DNA of 64,000 bases, taken from IMG/VR virus record IMGVR_UViG_3300037455_000221, positions 1 to 64,000 of that record; one strand, given 5' to 3'. Source of the stretch: a virus. Its lineage: Duplodnaviria > Caudoviricetes. The position numbers were made by a program, and so were the translations under genes. The first letter of the stretch is position 1, and the number at the start of each line of letters is the position of its first letter. A model generated the notes under the pieces. The model was not told the origin of the DNA and did no database searches. It saw only the letters and a list, made by a program, of their open reading frames with translations. Positions 2,933 through 40,937 of the stretch are shown here, in pieces.

Positions 2933-2955
2933 CTAATGCGTAAGTAAAGATGTTT

Positions 2956-4112: not shown

Positions 4113-4125
4113 TCCTTTTTCCTCC

Positions 4126-4564: not shown

Positions 4565-4566
4565 AA

Positions 4567-4890: not shown

Positions 4891-4912
4891 TTCAATATTA
4901 TCATCTACTTTA

Positions 4913-5528: not shown

Positions 5529-5532
5529 CTCC

Positions 5533-5730: not shown

Positions 5731-5733
5731 AAT

Positions 5734-5943: not shown

Positions 5944-5955
5944 ATTAATCCTCCT

Positions 5956-6222: not shown

Positions 6223-6223
6223 A

Positions 6224-6454: not shown

Positions 6455-6456
6455 AT

Positions 6457-6992: not shown

Positions 6993-6993
6993 A

Positions 6994-7275: not shown

Positions 7276-7288
7276 ATGCTTACCTCCC

Positions 7289-7636: not shown

Positions 7637-7671
7637 TTTATTATCTCCTTTATGTTTTAATGTTAAGTTTG

Positions 7672-7707
7672 TTATAAATTTAAAACCGGCGGCGGTCGTG
7701 TTTTCAT
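7672..7707 (-). CDS. micro-ORF MKTRPPPVLNL
   Basis: Strong AAGGAGGTGAT RBS at canonical spacing. Confidence 0.45.
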   Translation of the reverse strand: MKTRPPPVLNL

Positions 7708-7722
7708 AAGGTTATCACCTCC

Positions 7723-8361
7723 TTATCTTTCTACAAACATAGGTCTGATCTGTTTACATTCACGTGGCAGCTTATCAGATATCAGAATCTGATCAAAGGC
7801 CCACTTGCCTACGATATCCATACAGTAGCCGCGATAATCTCCGCCGCCAAGTCCATTTCCGCATGCGGTCAGTATTGGCAGAGGATGAATGCACCAAATT
7901 GATTCATGTTTGTCACCTGCATAATCAGTCCATGTTTCTTTCTGACGATTAGCTTCATAGTACTCATCAAAATTAATATATTGGTTCTTAGTTAAGTTGA
8001 TGATGTACTTACCAGAAAGAACATGTTCAGCAGCGGGCGTAATGTATTTAATCATACGCCCATTTCTCTTCCATGGATTATACTTTGCATATTCATCAGG
8101 AAGTTCTGCATAATCTCCTACCCACGCTATCTGAGCTGCTCCATTCTTAATAAGCTCTTCTGTAATTGCGTCAACAAACTGGTTATCAACATAACTATGT
8201 TCCATGAGCTTAGCCATAGTATAGTAATATCCTTTCTGCTGCACCTCTTCCTTATTCCAATCTGCAATGTGTTCAAGTCCCTTCTTGTCCGGCTTAACGT
8301 CCCTGTTGTAATACTTAGCTTTTCCGTTTCTTAAGATTGTTACCATGTAATACTGTCCCAT
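7723..8361 (-). CDS. phage hypothetical protein
   Basis: 212-aa ORF with AGGAGG RBS. Confidence 0.8.
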   Translation of the reverse strand: MGQYYMVTILRNGKAKYYNRDVKPDKKGLEHIADWNKEEVQQKGYYYTMAKLMEHSYVDNQFVDAITEELIKNGAAQIAWVGDYAELPDEYAKYNPWKRNGRMIKYITPAAEHVLSGKYIINLTKNQYINFDEYYEANRQKETWTDYAGDKHESIWCIHPLPILTACGNGLGGGDYRGYCMDIVGKWAFDQILISDKLPRECKQIRPMFVER

Positions 8362-8376
8362 ATTATTTACCCTCCT

Positions 8377-8613
8377 TTACTTATACATAATTGTGTACAG
8401 TGCCCATACCTCGTCAGAGCCACCATTGTTATGGCGGTTACTTGTAAAGGCTGTTATCTTGATATCAATGAGCTGGTTAACTTCGTTGTCAATGAAGTTA
8501 TTAAGTTCAGCATCAATATCCAGCTGCTCAACCATAACGGCATCACCAAACTGATTGCTCTCCCTTATTGATTTGCATGCACTTACCTTAAACATAAATG
8601 TCTTTGTCTTCAT
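8377..8613 (-). CDS. Cse60-like small protein
   Basis: D.ELNNFI...LIDIK...YTIMY pattern resembles the Cse60/DUF2758 family. Confidence 0.45.
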   Translation of the reverse strand: MKTKTFMFKVSACKSIRESNQFGDAVMVEQLDIDAELNNFIDNEVNQLIDIKITAFTSNRHNNGGSDEVWALYTIMYK

Positions 8614-8614
8614 A

Positions 8615-8968
8615 TTAGTTTCCTCCTTTTCTTATCTCAGCTGCTTCTTCCATTGTGATAATACGGATAGCCTTCATTCTGTTGGCAAGGATCCAGGCTC
8701 CTCCTTGAGACTCCGGTCTATCATAGGTAGTATAGTCCTCTACCTCTACTTCTACCCATACACGCTGCTCTCCATTAGAGAGAGCCTCCTTGAGGTGCGG
8801 TGCATAAGGGGTGAAGCAGCAATGCCAGCCTTGCCTTACAGCAAATCCCTTTGTCGGGTGGCACTCTGCCGGCAGCCACTCTCCGAACTTTGTCGGGGTG
8901 GTCTTGTCGATGAACAGCGGGTATACCTTACCATCCTTCTTCTGTCTCATAAGTTTGTAAGCTTTCAT
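8615..8968 (-). CDS. phage hypothetical protein
   Basis: 117 aa with RBS; GWHC..P.APH motif. Confidence 0.75.
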   Translation of the reverse strand: MKAYKLMRQKKDGKVYPLFIDKTTPTKFGEWLPAECHPTKGFAVRQGWHCCFTPYAPHLKEALSNGEQRVWVEVEVEDYTTYDRPESQGGAWILANRMKAIRIITMEEAAEIRKGGN

Positions 8969-9031
8969 AAATTGTTCTCCTTTTCTTAACTGAGGGGCAG
9001 ATTGCTCCGCCCCTATTAGTTTACTGTCAAC

Positions 9032-9739
9032 TTATCTCAGTGCTTCAGCCACCATGCCGCTCCTAGTGTAGCACTGACGGCAGCGGTTACAAGAACCAGG
9101 GCCGCACTGACAAGGAATCTGATCCGGCGCCTCAACTCCCTTCTCATACACAGTGAAGATTGTGTCGATGAAGGAGAACGTCTTCCTTATATCAGCTGCC
9201 TTATTTACCATAGGGCTGCTGTAGACAATCTTGAGGTTGTCCGGCTTTCCCTCTTCCTTTACTGCAATCTGCCACACCATAGGACGCTTAGTCCATGCAG
9301 CAAACTTCACTGTCGGGTTTGCTTTGGCTATGCGGATGTAGTTTCTAGCATGAGTCACATTGATGACATCACCATGAGATTCAAAGCGGAATATCTCTTG
9401 CTTAGATAAGTTCGGTACAATGTTAAGTAATGCACCGCTCAGAGCGTTTCCGTTTCTCTCAAGACAAGTGCGCTGATTCGGGTAGACTCCAGACTCGACC
9501 TGCTTATAGGCGTAGCAGTGAGAGCAGACAGTCTCCTTATTCTGCATCATCGTCAGGCAGCTTTCGTTCTGTCCGGCATAGGATGAGATTGCTCTCACCT
9601 TATCCATCTTACCGGTGAGGTGACTGATGTGAATACCGGTCTCCCTTTCAAACTGAGCAATTGATACAACCTTAACTTCCATAACGTTACCCTCCTTGTT
9701 GGTGTTAACAGTTACAACATTATTCTTCTTCATAAGCAT
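9032..9739 (-). CDS. GP88-like (Fe-S, radical-SAM-related) protein
   Basis: C-x9-CSHCYA, FRFESHGD, AWTK and C-terminal C..C..C..C. Confidence 0.7.
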   Translation of the reverse strand: MLMKKNNVVTVNTNKEGNVMEVKVVSIAQFERETGIHISHLTGKMDKVRAISSYAGQNESCLTMMQNKETVCSHCYAYKQVESGVYPNQRTCLERNGNALSGALLNIVPNLSKQEIFRFESHGDVINVTHARNYIRIAKANPTVKFAAWTKRPMVWQIAVKEEGKPDNLKIVYSSPMVNKAADIRKTFSFIDTIFTVYEKGVEAPDQIPCQCGPGSCNRCRQCYTRSGMVAEALR

Positions 9740-21320: not shown

Positions 21321-21953
21321 ATGACTATAAACAAAGACATTATTGATCTTAGTTCTATTTTTAACGACGATAAAGCTGGTGTTTACGATAAATTAACCGC
21401 CGGGTTTTTACAAAACAGAATATTGATATTTAATGAAGATATAACCGCAATGGTTATTGACGATGCTATCTCATGGATCCTTCAGTGGAATATTGAGGAT
21501 CTGCTTATCCCCAAGAAGGAGCGTATGCCTATTACAATCTTTATGCACAGCTATGGCGGAGATATGTATGCGGCTGGCCCTATGATTGATATTATACGAA
21601 GCTCTGAAACTCCTATAAGAGTGGTCGGGCTTGGCCTGGTTGCATCTGCAGCTTATCTAATCTATCTGGCAGCTGATGAAAGGTATGCATTTAAGAACAG
21701 TATCTTCCTTCAGCATGATGGCGAGATCGATGTGCAGAACTCTTCCGGTAAGGCAAAGGATACAATGGCATTCTTTGACGGAATGAATGAGCGTGTTAAG
21801 CAGTATGTGCTTGATCGTACGACTATTGATGAAGAGCTGTATGACAAGAACAAGGATCGCGAAATGTATATGTATGCGGATCGCGCTAAGGAACTGGGAA
21901 TTGTAAACAAGATAATTGGAGAAGACATTGCTCTAAAGGCAATATTCAAATAA
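21321..21953 (+). CDS. clpP: ClpP (S14) family protease
   Basis: RILIFNEDI, HSYGG, VASAA (Ser), FLQH (His), DREMYM.A..A.ELG.V. Confidence 0.85.
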   Translation: MTINKDIIDLSSIFNDDKAGVYDKLTAGFLQNRILIFNEDITAMVIDDAISWILQWNIEDLLIPKKERMPITIFMHSYGGDMYAAGPMIDIIRSSETPIRVVGLGLVASAAYLIYLAADERYAFKNSIFLQHDGEIDVQNSSGKAKDTMAFFDGMNERVKQYVLDRTTIDEELYDKNKDREMYMYADRAKELGIVNKIIGEDIALKAIFK

Positions 21954-23553: not shown

Positions 23554-24636
23554 ATGGCGACAAACTTACAATACGCGCCTTTAGAGGACGCGGACAAGAA
23601 AATCGGCGTCGCTGATATGCGTAGAATATACAGCAAGTTTGCCGAAACATATAACAAGATGCTCGATTGTGACATTATGTACTGTCCAAAGTGTGATCAA
23701 TGGAAACGTAACACTGGGCAGCACACGGGGTTTTACAGAGATGAACGCTTTAGAGCGGGCTATTTTCCGCTGTGTAAAGAATGCGTTCAAATGATTGTTG
23801 AACAGAGAAAACGCGAGAATGACACACCTAATGAAACCAAAGAGAGTGTGATGAAGGTTCTTGAACTTATGGATAAACCTTATTATGACGAATTGTACTG
23901 TACTTGTATCAGAGGTGTAGAGGAACATAAGAATGATCCTGGCAGTAGAAAGAATTACCAGTCTCCTTTTGCAATCTATATCACACAGATACAGAGCCTT
24001 CCTCAACATAAGGGTAAGAAATGGAAAGATAGTAAATTCGGTAGTTATGAGCAACGTCCGGTTGAAGAGACGTTTGACGAGAGCTCTGATTTTTTTAAGA
24101 AGGCGAAAGAACACTTCGGTAATGAGTATTCGCTGCCTGATCTGAATTTCTTAGAGAAGGAATATTCAGATTGGTGTGAGCGTAATGAGTGTAATACTAA
24201 AGCTCAAGAAGAAGTATATAAGAATATAGCGTTCACTCAGCTTGAACTGCATAAGGCAAGACTTAATGGTGAGCCTACAGATAAGCTGACTGCTACTCTG
24301 CAGAAACTAATGGAGACCGGCAATATTACACCTAGGCAGACTAAGACGGATATTACTAATGGTATTGAATCATTTGGACAACTGATACAGAAGTTCGAAG
24401 AGACAAGACCAATACCGGATCCTGATCCCGATTTGGCTGACGTTGACAAAATCGGGAAATATATTAGTGTGTTCTTTCTTGGTCATCTTGCAAAGATGAT
24501 AGGTATCAAGAATAAATATTCAAAGATGTATGACGATTATATGAGGCAGTATTCTGCTAAACGTCGCGAGTTTAAAGGTGATGAGGATTCCGAAGATATA
24601 TTCGCGAAAGTATTTGGTGGCTTGACAGATGAGTGA
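23554..24636 (+). CDS. putative terminase small subunit / packaging-associated protein
   Basis: Zn-finger CxxC...CxxC N-terminus; overlaps the TerL start. Confidence 0.55.
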   Translation: MATNLQYAPLEDADKKIGVADMRRIYSKFAETYNKMLDCDIMYCPKCDQWKRNTGQHTGFYRDERFRAGYFPLCKECVQMIVEQRKRENDTPNETKESVMKVLELMDKPYYDELYCTCIRGVEEHKNDPGSRKNYQSPFAIYITQIQSLPQHKGKKWKDSKFGSYEQRPVEETFDESSDFFKKAKEHFGNEYSLPDLNFLEKEYSDWCERNECNTKAQEEVYKNIAFTQLELHKARLNGEPTDKLTATLQKLMETGNITPRQTKTDITNGIESFGQLIQKFEETRPIPDPDPDLADVDKIGKYISVFFLGHLAKMIGIKNKYSKMYDDYMRQYSAKRREFKGDEDSEDIFAKVFGGLTDE

Positions 24637-26398
24637 AAAGAAAACTCTTGCTCAAGTTCAGCAAGAAAAGAATGATCGCATAATGGATGGGGTCGGCATG
24701 TGGACGGCGTACTATCGTGCAAATCCTCAGCGCTTTGCTGCCGACTTTTTAAATATGCAATTAAAAGTATTCCAGAAGATATTACTTTACATCATGAACT
24801 TGATGACTGTAATGTCTTTTTTCGCATCAAGAGGTTTAGGTAAGACTTATATTGTTGCACTGTATTGTGTAATCAGATGTATTCTTTATCCTGGCACTAA
24901 AGTGTGCGTGGCTTCCGGAGTACGATCTCAGGCTACTGAGATAATTGGTAAGATAAATGACGACTTCCTAAAACTGCATGGTTGGGGAAGTGAAAACTTA
25001 CGTAATGAAATAAAAGAAATAAGCATGTCGATTAATAATCCACATGTTGACTTTAAAAATGGTTCGTTTATTAAATGTGTAACGGCAAGTGATAATGCTC
25101 TTGGAAACCGTGCTACTATCCTCATTGTTGATGAATGTAAGTTAGTGCCACGTGATATTATCCAAAGAGTGCTTAGACCCTTCCTTACATCATTAAGACA
25201 GCCGCCGTATCTTAATCTTCCTGAATATAAAAACAATCCTAAATATCAAGAAAGAAATACTGAGATATATATTACATCCGCTTACTATAAGAGTTCGTGG
25301 ACATATGACAAATGTAAGTCAGATGCGAGTATGATGCTTGATGATACTAAGAAATATTTTTGTTGTGGATTGCCATATCAGATTGGTATCAAGGATGGCA
25401 TATATTCAAAGGAAGCCGTTGAGGATGAGATGGCTGAATCCGATTTTAATCCTATTACGTTTATGATGGAACGTGAAGCACTCTTCTATGGTGAGGCTGA
25501 AAATGCATTCTTTGCATTTGATAGTCTTGTTGAACGTCGTGTGATTAAGAATGCGTTCTTGCCACTTCAGATGTATGAGAAGCGTGGTATTAATGTTCCT
25601 GATCTTGTAGATGGAGAACGTCGTATATTGTCGGTTGACGTGGCACTTATGTCGAGTAAGACGCATAATAACGACGCGTCAGCATTTGCAATTAATGTAG
25701 CTACACCTACTAACAACGGATATGCATCACACATTGTGTATATGCAAACATTTGAAGGTAAGACTACGGATGAGATTGGTATAACTATAATGAGATACTT
25801 TAATCATTATAAGTGTACGGATCTTGTACTAGACGCACAGTCATTTGGCACGAGCGTATATGACTTTATCTGTCAACAGCAGTTCGATGCTGAGACTGGT
25901 GAGACATATGATGCGATGTGTTCATGTAATGATCAGTTGATGGCTGAGCGTTGCAAGGATAAGAGTGCTATTAAATGTGTATGGTGTATTAAAGCTTATG
26001 AGCAATTCAACTCTGAAGCTGCGGCTATGCTGCGTGCCGGAATACAGACTGGCAATCTCTCACTGTTAATCAATGAATATGATGCTGAAGATGTGGTTAA
26101 AAAAATTTCGGGCTATGCGAATATGACACCACAAGAACAGGCGTCATTACTTATGCCATATGCTCAGACTACTGCACTTATAAATGAAATGGTTAATCTT
26201 GAAGGTGAAGTAGTTGGAAATAAGATCCGACTTAGAGAACATGCGGGTATGCGTAAGGATAGGTTTTCAAGTGTTGAATACAACTATTATGTAGCACAAC
26301 TTATTGGTCGTGAAGCAAGTCGTAAGAACGACGAGACAACCAAATCATTACTCGATCTTATTGGTGGTTCAATAAGAAAAAGTTCTATTATTAAATAA
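24629..26398 (+). CDS. terminase large subunit
   Basis: Walker A SRGLGKT, Walker B ILIVDE, motif III ITSA, nuclease SVDVA ... KDRFSS. Confidence 0.92.
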   Translation: MSEKKTLAQVQQEKNDRIMDGVGMWTAYYRANPQRFAADFLNMQLKVFQKILLYIMNLMTVMSFFASRGLGKTYIVALYCVIRCILYPGTKVCVASGVRSQATEIIGKINDDFLKLHGWGSENLRNEIKEISMSINNPHVDFKNGSFIKCVTASDNALGNRATILIVDECKLVPRDIIQRVLRPFLTSLRQPPYLNLPEYKNNPKYQERNTEIYITSAYYKSSWTYDKCKSDASMMLDDTKKYFCCGLPYQIGIKDGIYSKEAVEDEMAESDFNPITFMMEREALFYGEAENAFFAFDSLVERRVIKNAFLPLQMYEKRGINVPDLVDGERRILSVDVALMSSKTHNNDASAFAINVATPTNNGYASHIVYMQTFEGKTTDEIGITIMRYFNHYKCTDLVLDAQSFGTSVYDFICQQQFDAETGETYDAMCSCNDQLMAERCKDKSAIKCVWCIKAYEQFNSEAAAMLRAGIQTGNLSLLINEYDAEDVVKKISGYANMTPQEQASLLMPYAQTTALINEMVNLEGEVVGNKIRLREHAGMRKDRFSSVEYNYYVAQLIGREASRKNDETTKSLLDLIGGSIRKSSIIK

Positions 26399-26497: not shown

Positions 26498-26537
26498 GGC
26501 GGTGCGAGCCTCAAAACTTGCACCGCTATTTCTTTTT
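26498..26537 (+). terminator. intrinsic terminator
   Basis: gcggtgcgag...cttgcaccgc followed by a T-rich tract. Confidence 0.6.
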
Positions 26538-26605: not shown

Positions 26606-27112
26606 ATGGATATAGTTTCTTATGTATTATCGAGAAAATATACGGATGAAACGGCTATAGAGTTTGGTGCCCTAAAAGGCGCTCCATGTACTATTAAGTC
26701 CATCGTCCATCAGGATGGACAAAATATAGTTACATTTGAATGGAAAAATAGCGATGGTGAAACTCGTTCCAGTGAAATGCGAGTCTTAGACGGAACACCC
26801 ATATACGTATGGGAATCTGGAGACCATTATAACTATGGTGATCTTGTTATTTATTCGGCAATGTTTTATAGATGCGTAGTCGAAAATAGCGATGTAACAT
26901 TTGATAGTACTAAGTGGGCTGAGATTGGTGGAGCCGATTCACAATATGATATCGTAGAAAACTCTTCGCAACTTCCGCCTCGATTTACTGCGGCGGATAG
27001 AAGGATGTATTACTCAATAGCAGATCGAGCCTTTTGGTTATGGAATGGAGAGGCGTGGGTTTTACAAGAACGAATAGCCACTACTGAGGAAATACTAGCA
27101 TTATTTGCGTGA
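26606..27112 (+). CDS. virion accessory protein with a CBM5/12-like module
   Basis: WESGDHYNYGDLVIY...FYRC...W; C-terminal IATTEEILALFA. Confidence 0.6.
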   Translation: MDIVSYVLSRKYTDETAIEFGALKGAPCTIKSIVHQDGQNIVTFEWKNSDGETRSSEMRVLDGTPIYVWESGDHYNYGDLVIYSAMFYRCVVENSDVTFDSTKWAEIGGADSQYDIVENSSQLPPRFTAADRRMYYSIADRAFWLWNGEAWVLQERIATTEEILALFA

Positions 27113-27120
27113 GGTGAATA

Positions 27121-28293
27121 ATGACGAGAAAAACGATTAATGAGATAAATGAAAGACTTAAAACACATAGTACATTACAAATATTATATCCAACATCTAA
27201 CGAAGATGTGATGTGTAGGTGTTCAAAGTGTAATCAACAATTTGAAAAGCATCGAAAAGATTTATGGAATAAAATAATAGGATGTCCGGTGTGTAGGAAT
27301 TTAAAAATTATAAAAGGATATAATGATGTTGCTACTACTGATCCATGGATGGTGAAATATTTTGTTGATAAAGAAGATGCTTATAAATACCCATCTCGAT
27401 CTCGTAAAAAGGTTAAAGTGAAATGCCCAGATTGTGGGTATGAAAGATCTATCGAACTTAATAATTTACACAAAAGAGGGTTTTCATGTCCTTGTAATAA
27501 TAAGGGTTATCATCGTGTTATTACCGGGATTAATGACGCGGCAACTCTTGTCCCGTGGATACTTGATTATTTAGTAGATAAAGATTTGGCATACACTCAT
27601 GCTCCTGGTTCATTGACTTCAACGGAGTTTCAATGTCCATACTGTCATACTATAGTAAAGCGATATATGCATGATGTGAGTAAACGCGGATTTATTTGTC
27701 CCATTTGTAGTGACGGAGTATCCTACCCTAATAAATTTGGCAGAGCTTTTATCAAACAAACTAAAGCTGAGAATGTTGAATTCGAGTATATACGAGATTG
27801 GACTGGCGGTAGATATTATGATATTTATTTCGAATATCAGGGTAAAAAATATTTTATAGAATTAGATGGGGAATTACACTTTAAATCATTATATGGAATG
27901 ACTTTAAAAGAGATTCAAGATAATGATAAATATAAAAATACAATAGCAAAACAACATGACATTATAATGATTCGAATTGATTGTCGTAAATCAGATAAAG
28001 ACTATATCAGGAAAAATATCGAGCAAAGTATTTTGAGAGATATATTTGATTTAACAACAATTGATTGGAATTTATGTGATGTGTTTTCTTGTTCCAGCTT
28101 AATGAGAACTGTATGTGACGATTATAATAAAGGTGAATTATTAATAAATGAAATTGCCGACAAATATCATCTTTCAACGCAAACAGTTAGTAGATATGTT
28201 AAGACTGGGATTAGTAACGGATTATGTATCTTTAATAAAGATAACAGAACTCGTGCTAGAAGAATATTGAATAAAAGGAATTGTTTTACTTAA
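27121..28293 (+). CDS. free-standing zinc-ribbon PD-(D/E)xK endonuclease (homing-endonuclease-like)
   Basis: Repeated CxxC ribbons (G.ND.AT..PW units), YDIYF...IELDGELH, C-terminal HTH; AT-rich relative to neighbours. Confidence 0.75.
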   Translation: MTRKTINEINERLKTHSTLQILYPTSNEDVMCRCSKCNQQFEKHRKDLWNKIIGCPVCRNLKIIKGYNDVATTDPWMVKYFVDKEDAYKYPSRSRKKVKVKCPDCGYERSIELNNLHKRGFSCPCNNKGYHRVITGINDAATLVPWILDYLVDKDLAYTHAPGSLTSTEFQCPYCHTIVKRYMHDVSKRGFICPICSDGVSYPNKFGRAFIKQTKAENVEFEYIRDWTGGRYYDIYFEYQGKKYFIELDGELHFKSLYGMTLKEIQDNDKYKNTIAKQHDIIMIRIDCRKSDKDYIRKNIEQSILRDIFDLTTIDWNLCDVFSCSSLMRTVCDDYNKGELLINEIADKYHLSTQTVSRYVKTGISNGLCIFNKDNRTRARRILNKRNCFT

Positions 28294-28328
28294 CATTTAA
28301 ACATTTTTTGATAAAGGAGAATAATAAA

Positions 28329-29729
28329 ATGGCTAATATAGAAAAGGTTCTTATTGATCTTACTGGTCTTACTACTTATGATGCTGCGATTAAGGAATGG
28401 GCTAACAGCGCTTCTCAGGTTGCTTACAAGTCTGTGCTGCTCAGTGCAGATGGGAATAATGTTTATTTTTACAAGAAGGCAAATGCTGTTCTCGGCACTG
28501 ATACCCCTGATGCTACTATCGCACTCGGCGGCGGAGATCTTTCTACAAAGCTGGCTGCCCTTGCAACTGCATGTGGTGCTACATGGGATAGCACTCATTC
28601 TACATATACTCTTGATCTCGACAATACATTTGGACAAAATACTGATACCATCGTTGAGGCTCTCAATGAACTTAAGGGTCAGATCAATACTCTGAACGCA
28701 AATGATACTACTGCCGGTTCAGTTGCAAAGTCTATCAAGGATGCTGTTGAAGGACTTGATGTTAGCGAGTTTGCACTTGCTTCTGAATCTTCAGGAGTAG
28801 TCACCATTAAGGGTGTAAAGGAAGTTGACGGTAAGATTGCTGTTGGCACTGATACTACTAAGGACGTAACTCTTGCAAAGGTTGCTACTACTGGAACCGC
28901 TGCTGATATTGCGATTACAGATTCTGGATCACACTACACTTCTACTGATGTCGAAGGCGCTCTTGCAGAGGCTGCTACTTCTGCTGCTTCTAAAACTGTT
29001 TATATCACTGAGACCGCTGGTGGATCAGGAGATGCATTCAGCAAGCGCTATGGTGTATATCAGGGATCTACCGGATCCTCTTCTTCTCCTGTTGTAGGTG
29101 AGAAGCTTGCAGATATTGATATCCCTAAGGATATGGTTGTTGAAGAAGGTTCTGTTGTTGATATTACCTATGATAATGGTCATCTTTACGATGGAGTTAC
29201 TGATGTAACTGAGATTATTAAGGGTGCTGGCGGAACTGCTACTGCTGCTGATGCTGGTAAGTATATTAAGCTTATCATTGCTAATGCTACTAGCGATACT
29301 ATTTATATTGCTGCTAAGGCTCTTGTTGATGTCTATACAGTAGAGGCAAATGCTTCCGAGATTCAGCTTGCAATTAGCAACGCTAATGAGATCTCCGCTT
29401 CTGTTGTGAATATTGATGGTTCAAAGATTGGTTATACCTACAGTGGTGGAACTATGACTGAGTCTGTTGCTGCAGCTCTTACGAGACTTGATGGATCTGA
29501 TAGCACTACTGGCTCTGTTGCTAAGAAGATTAAGGATGCTATCGAAGCTCTTGACACTCAGTCCGATGTTGCTGTTGCCACTTATACTGCTGGCACTTCA
29601 GGTGCTGCTGATGTAATCAGTCTTACTGGTTCTGTTAAGGAGCAGGATGGTGTTATTTCTGCAGGAACAGCAGATACTGTTAATCTTAACATTGTTACTA
29701 CTGCACAGATAAATGCATTATTCTCATAA
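28329..29729 (+). CDS. fibre/decoration structural protein
   Basis: A/T/G/S-rich; repeated GSVAK.IKDA; N-terminal IDLTGLTTYD and C-terminal TTAQINALFS. Confidence 0.7.
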   Translation: MANIEKVLIDLTGLTTYDAAIKEWANSASQVAYKSVLLSADGNNVYFYKKANAVLGTDTPDATIALGGGDLSTKLAALATACGATWDSTHSTYTLDLDNTFGQNTDTIVEALNELKGQINTLNANDTTAGSVAKSIKDAVEGLDVSEFALASESSGVVTIKGVKEVDGKIAVGTDTTKDVTLAKVATTGTAADIAITDSGSHYTSTDVEGALAEAATSAASKTVYITETAGGSGDAFSKRYGVYQGSTGSSSSPVVGEKLADIDIPKDMVVEEGSVVDITYDNGHLYDGVTDVTEIIKGAGGTATAADAGKYIKLIIANATSDTIYIAAKALVDVYTVEANASEIQLAISNANEISASVVNIDGSKIGYTYSGGTMTESVAAALTRLDGSDSTTGSVAKKIKDAIEALDTQSDVAVATYTAGTSGAADVISLTGSVKEQDGVISAGTADTVNLNIVTTAQINALFS

Positions 29730-29751
29730 TCTAAGAAAGGAGATTTAGGAG

Positions 29752-32391
29752 ATGAGTGTTATAGAAAAAGATATCCTTGATCTCCAAGGATTACAAACGT
29801 ATGATGCGTTAATAAAAAATAATATAGAATTTGATAATTTAAAAGATCGCCCCGTCAAGGAGGTAACTCCTATGGCGGAGGTGATCACGCCGCTGCCGGC
29901 CGAAGGCCAATGCGGTGATATGCTTCGTGCTGTCTATGATACTGACAGAGATGGCATAGTCGATAATGCAGAAAATTCACAACATTCACAAAATTCACAA
30001 GCCCTTAACGGACACGCTGATACATATTTTGGTACGGCTTCTCAGATATCTACTCTTACTGATAATCTTGCTGATGAAGTATCAAACAGAATGGATGGGG
30101 ATAATGCCCTTACCACGGCTCTTGCTGTTGAGAGAGCAAGAATTGATAACATCATCGCACTTCCCGATGGTTCTACCACGGCTGATGCAGAACTTGTTGA
30201 TATCAGAACGGGTGCTGATGGCACGACGTATGCAAGTGCGGGTAATGCTGTCAGAGGTCAGGTCAATGATTTAAAGAGCGGATTGACCGAACGTGCGAAG
30301 GAGATTTGCAATCTTGGCGAACTCGTAAAGAATTGCACAGAACCTTTTACGTTTACAGGAGTAGACTTTCCAATAAAGAATAAATACCCAAGTTGGTCAG
30401 ATGCAAACCTAAATAACAACAATGATTATGATACAACATACTTTATTTCCGTAAGGGGAATAATCTCTTTTGAATTAACAGGGTATTCTTCATCAGTAAG
30501 ACCCGTTACTTTCTATGACGAAAACTTTGCTTTCGTTTCGGGAGGCTTTCAATCTGCGTTCATAACTGTACCTTCGGGTGCGTTCTTCATGCGTATTGGC
30601 ATTGAGAAGACAAACGAAAGCAATTTTACGATCAGCAATGTAAGGACTTATTTAAACAGCGAGATATTCGGTATAGAAGAAGTGCAGAAGTCTATGCTTG
30701 GCGGGGATGAAACTGTCAACTTCTATAACACATCAGCAGAATCTTTTGGTACTACCGGAAATACATTTTGGACAGTAGACCGGAAGTTTATTAAAGGAAC
30801 GCTGATTAAAAGCATAACATTAACACCAGGCTCAGGAGCCACAAGAGTAAATATTGGAAGGATGGATATTGCCACCAACGAATATTTGGAATATGGTGAT
30901 TTCCCCGTTAAGAATGGAGAAAATACTTTTTCTTTAAATATTACCACGGATATTGATTGTTATATCGTACTGAAAACCATACATAGTTTTCACTCTAATA
31001 GTGTACCAAGTGGTTACAACCTTCTTGAATTTTCATTAAGCGGAACAACACTTACGAAGCTTCAAACTCTTCAGAATTTTGGAATAAAGGTAACTGTTAC
31101 TGATTGTATTGTATTGCCCGAAGTTGTTGATGCAAGGATAGGCTATGACGGAACTGTTTACGATAGTCTTGGAAATGCAATAAGAGAGCAGGTAATGAGT
31201 ATCGGTGATTTGGTCGGTACTAAGCCTATTGTTAAATATACAAACTCAGAGTTTGGATTCACAGATGGCAAGTATTACAATTGGAGTGACGGAAACCTTA
31301 GTGTCAATGCAGATTATTGTTATTCAAAATTCATTGACATAAACAACTTAGGTTTTGCACTTCTTGCTATCTTTAACAACATTGGAAGAGTAAATAGTAT
31401 CTGTTTCTTTGATTCCTCAAAAACATTTATTTCGGGTGCGTTTTCTACGCTGACATTCGATATTCCAAGTGGTGCAGCTTATTTCACGGTTAGCGTTCCT
31501 ATTACTTCAAAGGCTGATTTCTATATCCTTGCACTTCAGGCAACAGACGTAATTGAAGTTGGAAAGAATAAGCCTATAAAGAAAATAAATGATGCGTTGA
31601 ATATCGCATACGCTTTCGAAAGCATTTCAAACCCCATCACTATCATGGTCTATCCTGGAGTGTATGAAGAGGTTCTGTTTATTCAGGGAACACATTATGT
31701 ATCAATCATCGGTGTTAATCGTGACGAATGTATCATCAAAGATGGAACAGCAATGTATGACAATGCACCTTTGAGAATACAAGGACAGTGTTACATAGCA
31801 AACCTTTCAATCATTTCAAACGCTGATACTTATTCATCAGAAACCGGAACGGGATTCAGTGCATGGAAGACCGATGTATTAAATGGTGTCAAGAATCCCG
31901 AATGGCTTGGAACAATCGGTTCATATGCCGTACATTGTGATGATACGACCAACGGGGAAGAGACAGTATCAAGATTTGAGAATTGTTATATGTATTCATG
32001 TACCATGCCTGCATTTGGTTCGGGCACACAAGAGAATAACAGAATCGAACTTGTTAATTGTGAAATGGTTTGTGACATTGATCCCGATATCGGTGAACTT
32101 GTCAATTCAAATACTCAGGGATGCTTACTTATCCACGGACATAACAATGGAGATAACATGAGCGTTTTCGTTAAGGATTGTTATATCGAAAGCGTGAACT
32201 GTAAGAGCGTTCATATGTATCCTGTCGGAGCAAATAACGATATCAAAATAGCGTTCCTCAATAACACGTTCATGAACAATAGGCAGGTATCTCAATCAGC
32301 AATGATTGATTTCACATTTGATTCATCCACTATTGAGAAGTGTTCACATGGTAACAACCTTGATTTCTTTAATAAGACACTTGGAACGTGA
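29752..32391 (+). CDS. spike/fibre with pectin-lyase-like beta-helix (putative depolymerase)
   Basis: Two E.VD.R.G.DGT.Y.S.GNA.R.QV repeats; C-terminal IKKINDAL...VYPGVYEE...VSIIG pectinesterase-like start. Confidence 0.7.
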   Translation: MSVIEKDILDLQGLQTYDALIKNNIEFDNLKDRPVKEVTPMAEVITPLPAEGQCGDMLRAVYDTDRDGIVDNAENSQHSQNSQALNGHADTYFGTASQISTLTDNLADEVSNRMDGDNALTTALAVERARIDNIIALPDGSTTADAELVDIRTGADGTTYASAGNAVRGQVNDLKSGLTERAKEICNLGELVKNCTEPFTFTGVDFPIKNKYPSWSDANLNNNNDYDTTYFISVRGIISFELTGYSSSVRPVTFYDENFAFVSGGFQSAFITVPSGAFFMRIGIEKTNESNFTISNVRTYLNSEIFGIEEVQKSMLGGDETVNFYNTSAESFGTTGNTFWTVDRKFIKGTLIKSITLTPGSGATRVNIGRMDIATNEYLEYGDFPVKNGENTFSLNITTDIDCYIVLKTIHSFHSNSVPSGYNLLEFSLSGTTLTKLQTLQNFGIKVTVTDCIVLPEVVDARIGYDGTVYDSLGNAIREQVMSIGDLVGTKPIVKYTNSEFGFTDGKYYNWSDGNLSVNADYCYSKFIDINNLGFALLAIFNNIGRVNSICFFDSSKTFISGAFSTLTFDIPSGAAYFTVSVPITSKADFYILALQATDVIEVGKNKPIKKINDALNIAYAFESISNPITIMVYPGVYEEVLFIQGTHYVSIIGVNRDECIIKDGTAMYDNAPLRIQGQCYIANLSIISNADTYSSETGTGFSAWKTDVLNGVKNPEWLGTIGSYAVHCDDTTNGEETVSRFENCYMYSCTMPAFGSGTQENNRIELVNCEMVCDIDPDIGELVNSNTQGCLLIHGHNNGDNMSVFVKDCYIESVNCKSVHMYPVGANNDIKIAFLNNTFMNNRQVSQSAMIDFTFDSSTIEKCSHGNNLDFFNKTLGT

Positions 32392-32404
32392 TTAAGGAGA
32401 ATAA

Positions 32405-32494
32405 ATGGACACAATAATCTCTTCTATCATAACCGGAATAGTCGCTATCACTACTTGTCTAATCACTCAGGGCATGGCTAACAGAAAGAGATAA
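32405..32494 (+). pseudogene. truncated holin-like gene remnant (MDTIISSIITGIVAITTCLITQGMANRKR)
   Basis: AAGGAG RBS; single TM helix; stops after 29 aa. Confidence 0.4.
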
Positions 32495-32529
32495 TTAGCG
32501 GGTGGGTTTTCCTCCCGCTAACATAACAA

Positions 32530-32561
32530 GGGATGCCTCCAATCGGAGGTATCTCTTTTTA
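32530..32561 (+). terminator. intrinsic terminator
   Basis: gggatgcctcc-aatc-ggaggtatctc followed by TTTT. Confidence 0.6.
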
Positions 32562-32602
32562 TGCTTTAAAAATTTAAAAATAAATGAAAGGAGAAAAACA
32601 CG

Positions 32603-34363
32603 ATGGCAAATATAACTCATTCAGATGAGCTTGTGACAAAACAAGATTTGCATAGTTTTTATCAGGGTATATATCCGTATCTCGGCTCTAAATCACAATC
32701 AGATTGGGATGAGTCAGATGTCACGAAAACTTCTTACATTAAAAATAAACCAAATTTATATCTGATATTTGATGGCACAAAGGCTACTTACCAGAGAAAT
32801 ATGAAGAACTGGTTTAACGCTAATGGTGTGGACACTGCGGACGCGGAGGAATTAACACATCTTTGCGAGAGATGGTATAAAGTCAGCGCGATAGGCTGGA
32901 AGGGCGGTGTGTCTTTTCCCGCCATCACAGAGTCTACCGGTTCGACCGGCACAAAGTTCGGCGATAATGTGGGGCTGACTTGTGTTCCGTCTACTGACAC
33001 GGTGGCTAATACTGACGATTATCAGGGACTTCCGCTGTTTGCAATAACTGACTGCAACTGGGAGCTTGATGAGAACGGTAATATTCTCATTACGGCAATT
33101 GATGGAATTACCGACAATTTCAAACGCAATGATCCAACAGTATTTGTTGGCGTAATACAACAGACTGGTTATGTGAAGAAGGTTAATACTGCAACTACAC
33201 AGGACTATTATTATGCTGATGCTGCAAATGCGTATGAAAATCTTGTGCCATTACCTGAGGCTATTAAGCTCGATGGTACAGTGAGGAGCTTCGTGGTGCA
33301 CGCTAAATATATGAGCGGCATTGTAAATTCAAAGATGACTTGCTGTTCTGGCGTAATACCTAGAAGAAATATTTCGCACAATGGACTTATTACAATGCCC
33401 GATAATATTGGCACACAGTACAGCGGAGGTACAAGCGTTGACTGGTCATTTCTTGTATGGATGCAGAGAATAAAGTATGCATCACTTACTTCAGATGGAG
33501 TACTTCAAGGATGTTGTGCTTATAATTATCAGTACTATGTGCAAGTGGGCGAAACAGATGTTAAGCGTCTGATACTTGATGCGACACAAGGAGCAAATCT
33601 TAAAGTTGGTTCAACGATATGTTTTGGCTCTTATGCGGGCAATACTGATAGAGGTAATAGCGGTACTTATGATATATCAGGTCAGGATGGCGCGATTATT
33701 ACTTCTATTGAAGATGTAACTATAAATAGTGTGGCCTATAAGGCTGTATACGTAGACGTTACTACTGCATTTACTACAGTCGCAAATGGCGCGGCTACTA
33801 CAGGCACAACCATAGTGAGCACACACCATTGGATATCGGGCATGTGTGATGGCGTTAAGGGTAATGATGGATCGCCCGTGTCGGCTACTAATGGAGTTTA
33901 CCCCGCAATGCTTCAGGGCGTTGAATATATGGTAGGCGGATACGAGGTATTCGCCGATGTTATCATGAATATTTCCGGCGGCTACTACTCTCCTGTCTAT
34001 GCAAGGCGCGCGACATATCAGGCTACGTCTATTACTGAGAATATGGTGGCGTCTACACTTAAGTGTGCTCAGCCTAGTAGTGATGCTTGGAGATATGTTC
34101 AGCAACATGATTTTGATGGAGAGATATTCTACCCTACGTCACAAGGTGCAGATAGTACTAAATATATGAAAGATGGATTTTATATGAATGGTACTACTAC
34201 CACTACTGCAACTAGGGAATGGCTGGCGTTTGGCACCCTGTACAGCGGCTCTGGGCATGCTGGTTTGTCGTGCTTGGCCGGCCACACCGCCCTTGGGGCC
34301 GGTTGGTGGGCCTTCTTGGCGCGCATTTCCCCCAACGGCAATAGGGGTGAATTGGCGGCGTAA
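32603..34363 (+). CDS. DGR target protein (Mtd-like, C-type-lectin-fold receptor-binding protein)
   Basis: 3' end contains the VR; GVEYMVGGYEV motif; ends ...FLARIS. Confidence 0.88.
   Translation: MANITHSDELVTKQDLHSFYQGIYPYLGSKSQSDWDESDVTKTSYIKNKPNLYLIFDGTKATYQRNMKNWFNANGVDTADAEELTHLCERWYKVSAIGWKGGVSFPAITESTGSTGTKFGDNVGLTCVPSTDTVANTDDYQGLPLFAITDCNWELDENGNILITAIDGITDNFKRNDPTVFVGVIQQTGYVKKVNTATTQDYYYADAANAYENLVPLPEAIKLDGTVRSFVVHAKYMSGIVNSKMTCCSGVIPRRNISHNGLITMPDNIGTQYSGGTSVDWSFLVWMQRIKYASLTSDGVLQGCCAYNYQYYVQVGETDVKRLILDATQGANLKVGSTICFGSYAGNTDRGNSGTYDISGQDGAIITSIEDVTINSVAYKAVYVDVTTAFTTVANGAATTGTTIVSTHHWISGMCDGVKGNDGSPVSATNGVYPAMLQGVEYMVGGYEVFADVIMNISGGYYSPVYARRATYQATSITENMVASTLKCAQPSSDAWRYVQQHDFDGEIFYPTSQGADSTKYMKDGFYMNGTTTTTATREWLAFGTLYSGSGHAGLSCLAGHTALGAGWWAFLARISPNGNRGELAA
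34221..34329 (+). repeat. DGR variable repeat (VR)
   Basis: 109 bp; differs from TR at 16 positions, all opposite TR adenines. Confidence 0.97.
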
Positions 34364-34468: not shown

Positions 34469-34577
34469 GGCTGGCGTTTGGCAACCTGAACAACGGCTCT
34501 GGGAATGCTGGTTTGTCGTACTTGAACGGCAACAACGACCTTGGGAACGGTAGGTGGAACTACTTGGCGCGCATTTC
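34469..34577 (+). repeat. DGR template repeat (TR)
   Basis: AAC-rich copy of the VR, non-coding, directly upstream of the RT. Confidence 0.97.
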
Positions 34578-34715
34578 TTGACTACTCTCGATTAATTAAA
34601 CGGTGTAATAACTATGCGACTATGTATCCTCGCTGCGGCGGAAATAGAGAGCTATTGCAACCGGCTAGTAGGTAATGGCGAAGACCGGCGCTTTCAAAAG
34701 GAAAGGAAAAATATT

Positions 34716-35942
34716 TTGAAGAAAAGGTGTAAACATATTGATATTACTGATCCAAAGACGGTTAGAGATTGGGTAGCAGATTGCATAACTAGACATAAGG
34801 CTCGTTATGATTTTAGAGATATGCTACTTGAAAATGGATTATCTAAAGATGATTATGATAGAGTGATTGATGAACATGCTAATTATTTAATGGAATCTGC
34901 TATCGAAAAGATCACAGCTGAAACATGTAGGAGAATTAAAGAAAGAGATTTGGCTTTGCCTCCTGTGCGTATTCGTGAACAGAAAGATCATACTACTGGT
35001 AAAGTTAGAATGATTGGATGTGAATCTCCTATGCAGCAGATTATGGATTATATTGCTGTTTATTCTTGTCAAGAAATTTTTGATGCAAGAATCGTACCTC
35101 AACAATGCTCATCAGTTCCTGGTCGTGGTCAGGTATATGGGATGAAGTTAATTAGAAAATATGTTAACACCGATAATAGATCCATTAGATATTGTAAGAA
35201 ACATGGATATAAGTATTTTAGTAAATGTAAATACGTTGTAAAACTTGATATTGAAAAATGTTTTCCTTCCGCCAAAATGGAAATATTTATTGATTTATTC
35301 AAGCATGATTGTGGTAATCAAACAATTGTGTGGTTGTGGACAACATTGTTCCTTACTCATCGTTATGCGGGATATGAAGGATTTATGATAGGATCTCTTA
35401 TCTCACAATGGGCTTGTCAGTATATGTTATCATTTGTATATCGAGAAGCTATGAATATTGGTTATGTAAAACGCAATGTAAAGCATAGTTCTGTGTCTCA
35501 TATGATAATGTTTATGGATGATATGGCATTATTCGGGAGTAACAGAGAACAATTACATAAAGCAGTGCTTCATTTGATAACATATACTTATGATAAGCTA
35601 GGTTTTAAGATTAAATTGAATTATGCCATACACCCATTTAGTCAAGTGGATATGATGGGGTATGTAATATATGGTAATGGTACTGTTAGTATTAGGTCTC
35701 GCAATTATATCAAGGCTCGTAGATTAAAGATAAGGTGCATCACGCAAGGTAGTCTTTCGCTGAGGCAATCAAAGAGAATGGTATCATACAAGGGGTTTTT
35801 CAAGCACTCTGATTTTAATAAGCCGGGGATGTTTGAAATATTTTGTATCGCTCAAAACGTAATAAGTGCAAAGGAGAAACATCATGGAGAAGGGAATATA
35901 TTCGGAACTTCCGGAGAGAATAGATTATCTGCAGCATCGTGA
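34716..35942 (+). CDS. DGR reverse transcriptase
   Basis: GKVRMI, PGRG, KLDIEKCFPS, IGSLISQ (DGR-type), FMDD, DMMGY; TTG start after GAAAGGA RBS (track start 34614). Confidence 0.93.
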   Translation: MKKRCKHIDITDPKTVRDWVADCITRHKARYDFRDMLLENGLSKDDYDRVIDEHANYLMESAIEKITAETCRRIKERDLALPPVRIREQKDHTTGKVRMIGCESPMQQIMDYIAVYSCQEIFDARIVPQQCSSVPGRGQVYGMKLIRKYVNTDNRSIRYCKKHGYKYFSKCKYVVKLDIEKCFPSAKMEIFIDLFKHDCGNQTIVWLWTTLFLTHRYAGYEGFMIGSLISQWACQYMLSFVYREAMNIGYVKRNVKHSSVSHMIMFMDDMALFGSNREQLHKAVLHLITYTYDKLGFKIKLNYAIHPFSQVDMMGYVIYGNGTVSIRSRNYIKARRLKIRCITQGSLSLRQSKRMVSYKGFFKHSDFNKPGMFEIFCIAQNVISAKEKHHGEGNIFGTSGENRLSAAS

Positions 35943-36171
35943 TGGGTCTGCTGAGGCTAGACTCAGAAGAAATATAAAAGAAGGACAAGACGATGAAGGG
36001 AATATTATATGGACGGCTACTGAAGTATATATCCCTCATACGATGCTTAGTGAAGAAGAAATAGATGCAAGGTTTAATGACTATTTCGTGGCAGAAGAGC
36101 CTGAAGCAACTATTGCTGATCTCACGGAAGCAATTGACATATTAACAAGTATAGTACTTGGGGAGGAATAA
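35884..36171 (+). CDS. small fibre-associated (chaperone-like) protein
   Basis: AAGGAG RBS; C-terminal helical segment. Confidence 0.6.
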   Translation: MEKGIYSELPERIDYLQHRDGSAEARLRRNIKEGQDDEGNIIWTATEVYIPHTMLSEEEIDARFNDYFVAEEPEATIADLTEAIDILTSIVLGEE

Positions 36172-36174
36172 GTT

Positions 36175-36276
36175 ATGGTGCAGTTTTATTATAAGCTGGT
36201 TAAAGCCGGCAAACTTACTATAGATCAGGTTCCTGAAAAGTACAGAGAACTAGTGAGAGAATTATTGGAAGTGTGA
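36175..36276 (+). CDS. CD1375/XkdX-like small protein (MVQFYYKLVKAGKLTIDQVPEKYRELVRELLEV)
   Basis: Y..LVKAG..TIDQVP...R..V pattern; GGAGG RBS. Confidence 0.65.
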   Translation: MVQFYYKLVKAGKLTIDQVPEKYRELVRELLEV

Positions 36277-39422: not shown

Positions 39423-40937
39423 ATGGCGACTACAAAGAAAACGACTGCGGGCAACACCCGCACTGCGGCAGAGATACAAAACTATCTTGAGTTTAATGAT
39501 CAGTTATTTAAGAAAACCCAGGAAACTCTGCTTAAGATTAAAGACCCTAATAGACAAACAATAGCAAGTATAATTGGCAAGGATCGAAGATTAATCCGCG
39601 AATATTTGAAGAACCCAGCAAATAACGAGTCGAACTTAATTGCATCGGCTCGTTATTTATTTTATAGGACACAGATATTCTTCAGGCTCGTACTCTTCTA
39701 TGCCAGTATGTTTGACTTTAGATGTAGACAAGTAATACCTAATATAAGCTTGACTAAAACAAATAACCAAAAGAAGATACTCAAGCAGTATAACGATACA
39801 CTAAATTGGCTTGACCGCTATGATATCCAGGGTATTATGTTACCCGCACTTATTCGTATATTCCGTGAAGATGTATTCTACGGTATCTTTTATCGCGACG
39901 AGAGTGGAAGTATACTCTATCCTCTTGATCCTTCATGGTGTCGTATTGATGGTATCTACTCTTCTCATGACTACGCTTATTCGGTAGATATGAGTAAGTT
40001 TAAGAGCGCGCAGATGCAAGAGTTTTTACAGTGGATCGGGGATCCTCTTCTGTCTATGTATCGGGAATATGAACGTACTAATGTAAAGTGGGTTCATATG
40101 GACGATAGATATGCGGCATGTTTTAAATTTCGCACAGATGATCTTGATCATGTATTGCCTCCGCTGATGGCTATACTTCAGCAATTGGCGGCGCTTAATG
40201 ATCTTGCGGATTTACAAGCTATTGCGGACGAGCTAAGCATCTACAAACTTTTGCTTATACCTATGAAAACTATATCAGGTAGTAAACGTAGTGATGATTT
40301 TGAAGTATCCCCTGAATTGATGCTTGGTTATTACAACAGGATGCTTGAGAACTTGCCTGACTATATCGCAGCTGCACTTATACCGGCAGATGTAGATAAA
40401 GATAATGTACTTGACTTTTCTACTACCTCTTCGGATAAAGATGTAGATAGACTTGAACAGAGTGAAAAAACATTACTTGGTACTGCAGGTGGTGGTGCTG
40501 TGCTTAATGCAAATATGATTACGTCTACCGCGGCATTCAAAGCATGGCTTAAGTCTGAGACTGAGTTCGCAATATCGCCACTTATACCACAGATACAAGG
40601 ATTCACAAATCGTATGCTCAAATATGATTGTGGTAATCCATGTACTGTAAATTACTTTGAGGTGTCTATATATACCAAAGAAGATTTACAAGCTACATTA
40701 CTTGAATCATGTCAGTATGGATTTAGTAACAGACTCGCATACAATACGTTTAATGGTGTTAGTGAAAGAGCAACTATTGCTATGCAGATGTTGGAGAACG
40801 ATATATTAAAGATGCCTGATAAGATGATACCTCTTTCCTCTTCTTATACACAAAGTGGTGATAGCGAGGAAGCGGGGCGTCCCGAAGTGCCCGACGATGA
40901 GTTAAGCGGATCGGGCGAACGTAGTAGAAATGAGTGA
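39423..40937 (+). CDS. portal protein
   Basis: 504 aa, first large gene of the head module; C-terminal GRP + acidic tail typical of portals. Confidence 0.75.
   Translation: MATTKKTTAGNTRTAAEIQNYLEFNDQLFKKTQETLLKIKDPNRQTIASIIGKDRRLIREYLKNPANNESNLIASARYLFYRTQIFFRLVLFYASMFDFRCRQVIPNISLTKTNNQKKILKQYNDTLNWLDRYDIQGIMLPALIRIFREDVFYGIFYRDESGSILYPLDPSWCRIDGIYSSHDYAYSVDMSKFKSAQMQEFLQWIGDPLLSMYREYERTNVKWVHMDDRYAACFKFRTDDLDHVLPPLMAILQQLAALNDLADLQAIADELSIYKLLLIPMKTISGSKRSDDFEVSPELMLGYYNRMLENLPDYIAAALIPADVDKDNVLDFSTTSSDKDVDRLEQSEKTLLGTAGGGAVLNANMITSTAAFKAWLKSETEFAISPLIPQIQGFTNRMLKYDCGNPCTVNYFEVSIYTKEDLQATLLESCQYGFSNRLAYNTFNGVSERATIAMQMLENDILKMPDKMIPLSSSYTQSGDSEEAGRPEVPDDELSGSGERSRNE

Follow-up and report, generated by a model that had tools for sequence, protein, structure and literature searches.

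We analysed the first 64 kb (the window) of the 129,646-bp IMG/VR virus record IMGVR_UViG_3300037455_000221, in which three open reading frames (ORFs), ORF168, ORF466 and ORF879, lie between the genes of the terminase large subunit (TerL, 24629-26398) and the portal protein (39423-40937). We propose, with a probability of roughly 0.7, that their products are three segments of one trimeric fibre, joined end to end through docking of short terminal elements. Such docking of a C-terminal peptide onto an N-terminal element, in the order anchor, extender and tip, had been suggested, with the same placement between terminase and portal, in a first-pass annotation of this DNA. It is favoured here by conserved gene adjacency, by co-variation of the connector classes and by a controlled complex prediction whose interface falls on both motifs.

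At each junction, the C-terminus of the upstream protein would be a capped amphipathic helix of 10 residues, [IV]-[TS]-x-x-[EQ]-I-x-x-L-F (the tail), and the downstream protein would open with a short beta-strand followed by a helix, K-x-[FYIL]-L-D-L-x-G-L-x-x-Y-D-x-x-I-K (the head). Three tails of one trimer would pack on three heads of the next, each tail contacting two protomers, to form a non-covalent 3:3 junction. The predicted order runs from the anchor ORF168, with a carbohydrate-binding module and a trimerisation unit, through the extender ORF466 to the beta-helix tip ORF879, and the tiny intergenic gaps would fit coupled, equimolar synthesis. Three or more connector classes (A, A' and C among them), with no crossing between them, would exist, and the segments would be exchangeable as cassettes.

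Terminal motifs of the three proposed fibre proteins and their recurrence

All termini of ORF168, ORF466 and ORF879 quoted in the first-pass annotation are present in the window. ORF168 ends in IATTEEILALFA (longer end, ...ERIATTEEILALFA). ORF466, for which the ATG at 28329 with its ribosome-binding site is the true start, opens with IEKVLIDLTGLTTYDAAIK (longer, MANIEKVLIDLTGLTTYDAAIK) and closes with IVTTAQINALFS (tail peptide, ...NIVTTAQINALFS). ORF879 begins with IEKDILDLQGLQTYDALIK (longer, MSVIEKDILDLQGLQTYDALIK), and its C-terminal end is unrelated and lacks the tail motif. The alternation read earlier as C-only, N+C and N-only therefore stands for these three proteins; the fourth member of that series, an N-like terminus on the target of the neighbouring diversity-generating retroelement (DGR), does not, as described below. 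When all six frames of the full 129,646-bp genome were scanned, TT..I.ALF occurred exactly twice, both times at a C-terminus, and DL.GL..YD..IK exactly twice, both times at an N-terminus, so that recurrence and terminal placement are far above chance. The two heads of the window, and likewise its two tails, encode their conserved residues with different codons; selection therefore acts on the peptides and not on a DNA or RNA element.

Both motifs extend well beyond this genome. A search of 1.84 billion representative proteins (1.84e9) with a 34-position head profile matched 806 clusters at E<=1e-3. All except one of the best 150 matches begin at residue 1-4, and the tail is also present in 59 of the 150, mostly extenders of 300-600 amino acids (aa), the others being head-only tips. 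The body that follows the head measures between 44 and 1918 residues. Consistent with this terminal placement, matches to the head hidden Markov model (HMM) were confined to the extreme N-terminus in the set of about 90 related loci that we assembled (80 viral loci plus several ENA, JGI and NCBI contigs). One further N-terminus in the window, that of a 210-aa ORF just after the large YonO-like gene (21321-21953), scores 9.1 bit against the head HMM (rank 40 of 1110 N-termini); true heads score about 48-58 bit, and this resemblance is probably due to chance. Neither nine longer homologues nor any locus contained a fused form in which a tail runs in frame into a head, which is weak evidence as long proteins are poorly sampled.

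Short proteins are frequent among the head matches: 47 of the best 150 are below 100 aa, some being fragments, and a recurrent head-only family of about 55-62 residues is found among them, whose members may serve as chain-ending caps or mini-adaptors. Mini-proteins of this kind (L011:10890-11063; L013:12192-12362; P0252, P0256, P0260, P0278, P0279 and P0295) consist of a class A head and about 30 residues that end in ..P[TS][VF]....L.[FL].

ORF466 has at least 596 homologues, and both of its ends (head K.[FY]LDL.GL..YD..IK and tail I[TS]..[EQ]I..LF) are kept in 106 of the 120 listed. In the remaining 14 the N-terminus is different, and the C-terminus is different too. These 14 (P0049, P0053, P0054, P0057, P0059, P0085, P0087 and others) share the extender body, start with MANV.FK..TRAQ[FY]DAL.. 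and end with ..LTW[EGQ][ETS]..; no Pfam family matches these alternative ends, which may represent a fourth connector pair. A suspected resemblance of the alternative N-termini to the N-terminal domain of Mtd found no Pfam support and was dropped. No annotated Pfam, PHROG or NCBIfam family covers the connectors of the head- and tail-bearing proteins, and these have no relative in the PDB, against which the sequences of ORF168, ORF466 and ORF879 gave nothing usable.

Adjacency, class co-variation and the predicted junction

In almost every locus, the gene directly 5' of a head gene ends in a tail helix, with a gap of 11-66 nucleotides (nt) between the two. The strict tail pattern is found in 19 of 37 distinct genes directly upstream of head genes and in 8 of 5279 other frames (Fisher 8e-38, indicative only, as the loci are related); most of the other 18 upstream genes carry tail variants such as ..INKMF or ..IRQLFE, or reflect ORF-choice artefacts. 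It might be supposed that the termini resemble one another by chance or low complexity and carry no meaning, since the motifs are short, with 9-13 defined positions. However, each occurs only twice in six frames of 129.6 kb and at termini only, the head marks 806 clusters, and tails adjoin heads at 19/37 versus 8/5279; the probability left to this explanation is negligible, and we exclude it.

A common architecture recurs in these loci: the anchor, of 150-350 aa, bears just a tail, the extender bears both head and tail, and the tip bears just a head. The anchors comprise several unrelated body types, all with the same terminal helix; ten anchors of types other than ORF168 matched only PHROGs families that have no annotated function. 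The ORF168 family itself has 136 homologues, 54-74% identical to ORF168, and its body carries at least three tail classes: A (..I[TS]xxEIDALF), A' (..[IM]TxE[DE][IL]xxMWN[DN]) and C (..L[TS]xxQ[ML]xxLLxLL). For seven anchors of classes A' and C, the genomic context was retrieved, and the head of the next gene matches the tail class in 7/7. After class A' anchors come class A' heads (L087, L088 and L094), and class C extenders end in a class C tail that is followed by a class C head (L086, L089, L092 and L093). Over all loci, the junctions are 27 A>A, 3 A'>A' and 6 C>C, and none is crossed. The co-occurrence of the two motifs across phages, one of the checks that the first-pass annotation had named, came out in favour of docking.

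One locus, L094 (4618-10193), carries a four-gene chain. Its anchor has an A' tail; the second gene encodes a protein of 242 aa that combines an A' head with an A-type tail (ITAAQIIALWD), and the third a protein of 502 aa whose head and tail are both of class A. The chain closes with a tip of at least 835 aa, which opens with an A-type head and continues with SDWNETD..YIKNKP. Judged by its two ends, the 242-aa protein is a natural A'-to-A class converter. The tail, as these junctions suggest, is inherited with the downstream gene and not with its own body, as would be expected if docking holds, because tail and head must then fit. This co-variation of tail and head classes provides the strongest comparative argument for docking.

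Directly upstream of ORF168-type anchors, many loci carry small ORFs of 56-81 aa with a foldon-like hairpin end, ..VY.....G.W... (L004:9139-9348, L005:9261-9434, L086:7751-7996, L087:7794-7982, L088:7803-7973, L089:7791-7997, L092:4756-4986, L093:4767-4988 and L094:4399-4602). These ORFs have no family match and are not present in the window, L003 or L006.

The structure prediction of the junction agrees with the comparative data. Three copies of ORF168 residues 100-168 and three copies of ORF466 residues 1-125 were modelled together, each with its own alignment, unpaired. This model of the trimer ends, the other check named earlier, reached an ipSAE of 0.86 (runs 0.86, 0.87 and 0.81), as compared with 0.00 for the best of three controls. 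In calibration, with alignments different from those used here, 58 of 80 solved complexes attained the ipSAE mark, as did 2 of 110 mismatched pairs. The runs share at least 88% of contacts, and the partner has a predicted local distance difference test (pLDDT) value of at least 90. The confident interface is predicted between residues 154-167 of ORF168 and residues 4-24 of ORF466, that is, exactly on the two motifs. Each modelled tail touches two head protomers; I163 of one copy, for example, contacts residues 13, 16 and 20 of one head copy and residues 11, 14 and 17 of others. Recall of a known complex is unlikely, because no solved relative is found by sequence. In addition, the monomer models place a strand (E4-8) and a helix (H11-25) in the head of ORF466 and helices in both tails (H160-167 in ORF168 and H458-464 in ORF466).

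The monomer model of ORF168 (pLDDT 84) starts with an N-terminal helix (H3-17). Its CBM5/12-type module has a weak Pfam CBM_5_12 match and fold Z scores of 5-6.5 to chitin-binding domains; the fold also matches the same module in phage tail-fibre and tailspike structures, and weak tail-fibre and baseplate matches were listed as well. The beta-hairpin unit of ORF168 resembles small trimerisation domains (collagen XV, Z 4.7), as a lead only. Foldseek comparison of the ORF466 model with known folds gave no match. Residues 561-879 of ORF879 have no Pfam match, and their Atlas structure gives template-modelling (TM) scores of 0.59-0.71 to Beta_helix, NosD and pectinesterase clusters. As a lead, the C-terminal domain of ORF879 is right-handed beta-helix-like, and the tip would probably bind or cleave polysaccharide; of the depolymerase-like tip pictured earlier, the beta-helix fold is thus retained at this level.

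A different account holds that the ends do not touch: the heads would bind a common hub on the virion, the tails would serve as signals for trimerisation or chaperone recognition, and recombination would swap bodies between fixed ends. Several observations agree with it. One anchor can precede several head-bearing proteins (L088), the tips have no tails, the 'head D' paralogues in L011 have no helical tail upstream, and conserved gene ends are a known substrate of modular exchange in phages. However, it leaves unexplained why the tail class on the same anchor body shifts with the head class of the next gene, and why an A'-to-A adaptor exists in L094. Furthermore, tail and head are precisely where the modelled interface lies, with controls at zero, and conservation is seen at the protein level across 30-90% identity and not at the DNA level. 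We regard the common-hub account as quite improbable.

Docking remains our preferred reading, and several points weigh against it. Block inheritance of the junction would produce the same class table, and the counts are not independent because the loci are related. Some head genes lack a neighbour with a tail (L071, L073:12033, L079, L035 and, in L088, the second tip), and short contigs leave many head proteins with no identified partner. The score of the complex, obtained on our own unpaired alignments, expresses model confidence and not a measurement. Finally, nothing in the sequences bars the tail of one extender from binding the head of another, so that stoichiometry and order are not fixed by them.

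With even odds, in our estimate, the terminal connectors could form an assembly grammar in phages of gut and rumen Clostridia, in which gene order and terminal peptides set which trimer plugs into which. This grammar would include class converters and mini-tips of about 57 residues, and fibre length and tip would be composable and swappable between very different phages, with the attachment site on the virion left untouched.

Placement on the virion and neighbouring elements

Close relatives of this phage carry the Pfam families YonG, YonJ, YonB, YomU_Tube, YomW and YomX, which are named after proteins of Bacillus SPbeta; because of these families, the phage, whose genome is of the large siphovirus type, is classed as SPbeta-like. 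The gene of the tape measure protein (TMP, 3746 aa) spans 52400-63640 and is followed on its 3' side by Dit-like (276 aa) and Tal-like (1299 aa) genes, by genes of 760 aa and 1363 aa, and then by lysis genes. ORF168 homologues occur in rumen metagenome-assembled genomes (MAGs) of Oscillospiraceae, Butyrivibrio and other Clostridia, and a GTDB genome search with the anchor returned five short MAG contigs, usable as host hints only. A gut or rumen member of the Clostridia is the probable host. Searches of deposited phage genomes with ORF466, at both nucleotide and protein level, gave no match, and a TerL-based search of IMG/VR for relatives gave one short contig only.

The first-pass annotation had favoured display on the capsid from the position of the genes in the head module, and had pictured a branched system. 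The latter is not borne out in the window: it is a linear and not a branched chain that is predicted, because class A is represented in the window by a single anchor, a single extender and a single tip. As to the site, the cassette moves within the late region of related phages. Its place is between TerL and portal in the window and in L003, L006 and L007; in L008 and L009 it is flanked by the portal and a head gene; in L058 and L059 it is upstream of the terminase genes; in L088 it follows the tail tube gene; and in L004, L013, L019 and L086 it is found downstream of TMP or Tal. The ordinary-sized siphophage L043 has TMP, Dit and Tal, then an anchor and a head protein, and then an endolysin. 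The MAG prophage L093 has TMP, SPP1_Dit, Sipho_Gp37 and Collar, followed by an anchor 63% identical to ORF168, an extender and a tip, and then Amidase_2. By gene order, the cassette fills the canonical receptor-binding slot in ordinary-sized siphophages. Gene position is an unsafe guide to the virion site because the cassette moves in this way, and a tail fibre is favoured over a capsid fibre because one and the same anchor body would be expected to use one kind of attachment site. These arrangements make it rather likely that the fibre is a tail fibre, attached at the tail side or baseplate.

A capsid fibre, on a shell or decoration site, with the depolymerase tip and the DGR lectin as interchangeable branched tips, appears unlikely. 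In favour of a capsid site, this phage and its three closest relatives (L003, L006 and L007) have the cassette between TerL and portal, L008 and L009 have it between portal and a head gene, and a separate set of large baseplate genes follows TMP, because of which the cassette is not needed to complete the tail. Against the capsid site stand the 63%-identical anchor between the Dit/Tal/Collar genes and the lysis genes of L093, the other cassettes after TMP or Tal (L004, L013, L019, L086 and the L043 group) or after the tail tube gene (L088), and the terminators and mobile-unit behaviour of the cassette itself, which make position weak evidence. In addition, the DGR target head does not match the code, scans of Pfam, PHROGs and NCBIfam found no decoration or head-fibre family, and the DGR cassette holds small XkdW/XkdX-like genes. 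Genes of the XkdW/XkdX kind usually follow tail-fibre genes in PBSX, related and Firmicutes prophages.

The features of the fibre unit and its neighbours are collected in Table 1.

Table 1. Coordinates of the proposed fibre unit and adjoining features in the window
Feature	Position	Strand	Description or basis
Terminator-like hairpin after TerL	26498-26527	+	11-bp stem, T-run; marks start of putative independent fibre transcription unit
Anchor ORF168	26606-27112	+	N-terminal helix, beta-sandwich, CBM5/12-like module, beta-hairpin trimerisation-like module, tail helix
Code-A tail of anchor, residues 157-168, IATTEEILALFA	27074-27109	+	Motif; predicted interface residues 154-167
Free-standing homing endonuclease, not a fibre part	27121-28293	+	DUF4379; phrog_4538, phrog_559, phrog_9084
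Extender ORF466	28329-29729	+	Code-A head; variable coiled-coil and beta body with internal repeat; code-A tail
Code-A head of extender, residues 4-24, IEKVLIDLTGLTTYDAAIKEW	28338-28400	+	Motif; predicted interface residues 4-24
Code-A tail of extender, NIVTTAQINALFS	29691-29726	+	Motif
Tip ORF879	29752-32391	+	Code-A head, no tail; phrog_16048 virion structural protein, phrog_4577 tail protein
Code-A head of tip ORF879, residues 4-24	29761-29823	+	Head HMM, iE 1e-06
Right-handed beta-helix-like C-terminal domain of tip, residues ~560-879	31429-32388	+	Structure comparison, lead
29-codon hydrophobic ORF between tip gene and hairpin	32405-32494	+	Sequence
Terminator-like hairpin closing fibre unit	32528-32557	+	Hairpin
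DGR target protein; variable repeat (VR) 34221-34329	32603-34363	+	phrog_17147; match of VR to template repeat (TR)
DGR TR 34469-34577 and reverse transcriptase (RT) 34614-35942	34469-35942	+	RVT_1, phrog_1423; neighbouring unit

A 390-aa gene between ORF168 and ORF466, overlooked in the first-pass annotation, begins 8 nt past the anchor stop and precedes the ribosome-binding site of the extender. Its product matches the HNH endonuclease family phrog_559 (3.7e-29) and the homing endonuclease family phrog_9084 (2.4e-12) and has DUF4379 treble-clef zinc fingers. The gene is not present in L003 (90% identical) and L006 (74% identical), where the anchor-extender spacer measures 26-45 nt. With a nuclease family match and a presence/absence polymorphism at a conserved site, it is a free-standing homing endonuclease. 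Comparison of these spacers marks it as a later insertion that splits the cassette, and the conserved anchor-extender junction may be its homing site.

Downstream of the fibre unit lies a DGR, with a VR in the 3' end of the target gene, a TR 85% identical to it, and an RT gene matching RVT_1 and phrog_1423. The target contains LVTKQDLHSFYQGI. Its N-terminus had been taken for a weaker class A head, a candidate that we rejected: with 0.5 bit against the head HMM and rank 173 of 1110 N-termini, it does not rise above background. The module at this N-terminus is another one, 'head D' (SDExLVTKxDLxxxYxxIxPYLG, after which comes SDWDESD..YIKNKP), which in the partner search recurred only in four L011 paralogues, none with a helical tail upstream. 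The cassette is flanked by terminator-like hairpins of its own and is not present in L003. From these features, the DGR cassette is best described as a separate unit beside the fibre, and no link of its target to the code-A chain was found in the window.

The small genes of the DGR cassette comprise XkdW-like and CD1375-family genes. After the RT gene (35884-36276) lie genes for a 95-aa acidic protein, also found after the RT in L090, and for a 33-aa CD1375-family protein (NF040910, 5.4e-15). The L011 locus (250-9619) holds an array of paralogous small fibre-like proteins ending in ..[IL][QR]YTK[TI]TD, four of which open with the N-terminal module of the DGR target; the protein at the head of the array, of 461 aa, has an ORF168-like N-terminal domain and no tail helix. 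In L087 (8001-16034), a 1453-aa DGR target followed by an RVT_1 gene shares a cassette with an ORF168-type anchor and a 242-aa adaptor. The N-terminus of this target aligns with the head of the L094 tip and scores 1.6 bit against the head HMM, which is not significant. DGR targets may be tips in some phages.

Comparison with known modular receptor-binding systems

If end-to-end docking is true, sequence alone could reveal the order in which multi-gene fibres assemble, for hundreds of hypothetical proteins in phages of Clostridia, the class A head by itself marking 806 clusters. The recombination logic of these loci would become clear, the tail moving with the downstream gene. Tips could be swapped by a small portable handle in phages of anaerobes, which are hard to engineer, an approach already under way with the docking peptides of Klebsiella phages. 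The model also raises the question of what keeps an extender with head and tail of the same class from self-concatenation.

The first-pass annotation knew of no described plug-and-socket code. For these motifs this holds in our literature search, in which the motif strings returned unrelated papers only; for the principle it does not, since in KP32, K11 and KP34, podophages of Klebsiella, a branching domain of the receptor-binding protein (RBP) RBP1 and a conserved N-terminal docking peptide of RBP2 have been established experimentally (Latka et al., PMC13352976). As in the Klebsiella RBPs, a short conserved N-terminal peptide would here dock a separately encoded protein on the preceding one, the genes are adjacent and the bodies are exchangeable. 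By comparison, the Klebsiella receiver is a folded T4gp10-like branching domain inside RBP1, which creates a branch, whereas the predicted receiver here is a 10-residue C-terminal helix, which would give a linear chain. Scans of Pfam, PHROGs and NCBIfam found no T4gp10-like branching domain in ORF168, ORF466 or ORF879, and none was listed in the fold searches of ORF168 and ORF466. The two systems share no sequence similarity, and the present one differs further in its probable Gram-positive Clostridia hosts, its large siphophages, its at least three non-crossing classes and its converting adaptor.

Assembly of the T4 long tail fibre needs dedicated chaperones, and to our knowledge no shared terminal peptide code exists in that fibre. 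It is assembled serially from the separate gene products gp34-gp35-gp36-gp37 (PMC3004832), and the chain proposed here resembles it in joining trimeric (or monomeric) products of adjacent genes end to end, with a proximal anchor, connectors and a distal receptor-binding tip. No homology between the two is known. In the CBA120-type tailspike complex of Ackermannviridae, XD docking domains are used (PMC11414711). There too, RBPs are joined through conserved N-terminal modules, and tailspikes are acquired or exchanged without disruption of the complex. This is distinct from the present system in that CBA120-type docking uses folded N-terminal domains in a branched hub on the myovirus baseplate, as opposed to a predicted chain from terminal helix to N-terminus.

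The fourth comparison concerns DGR-diversified phage RBPs, of the Bordetella BPP-1 Mtd type and including targets in gut phages (PMC10743442). Like these, the gene at 32603-34363 has a C-terminal VR followed by TR and RT, and the L087 target shares its cassette with an ORF168-type anchor. Unlike a tip of the fibre, the target in the window has a different N-terminal module and no tie to the code-A chain. Taken together, assembly of RBPs through docking modules is already established, and the terminal-helix connectors described here resemble the compared systems but belong to none of them, because they share no families with these, would use a 10-residue helix as receiver in a linear geometry, and fall into non-crossing classes with converters.

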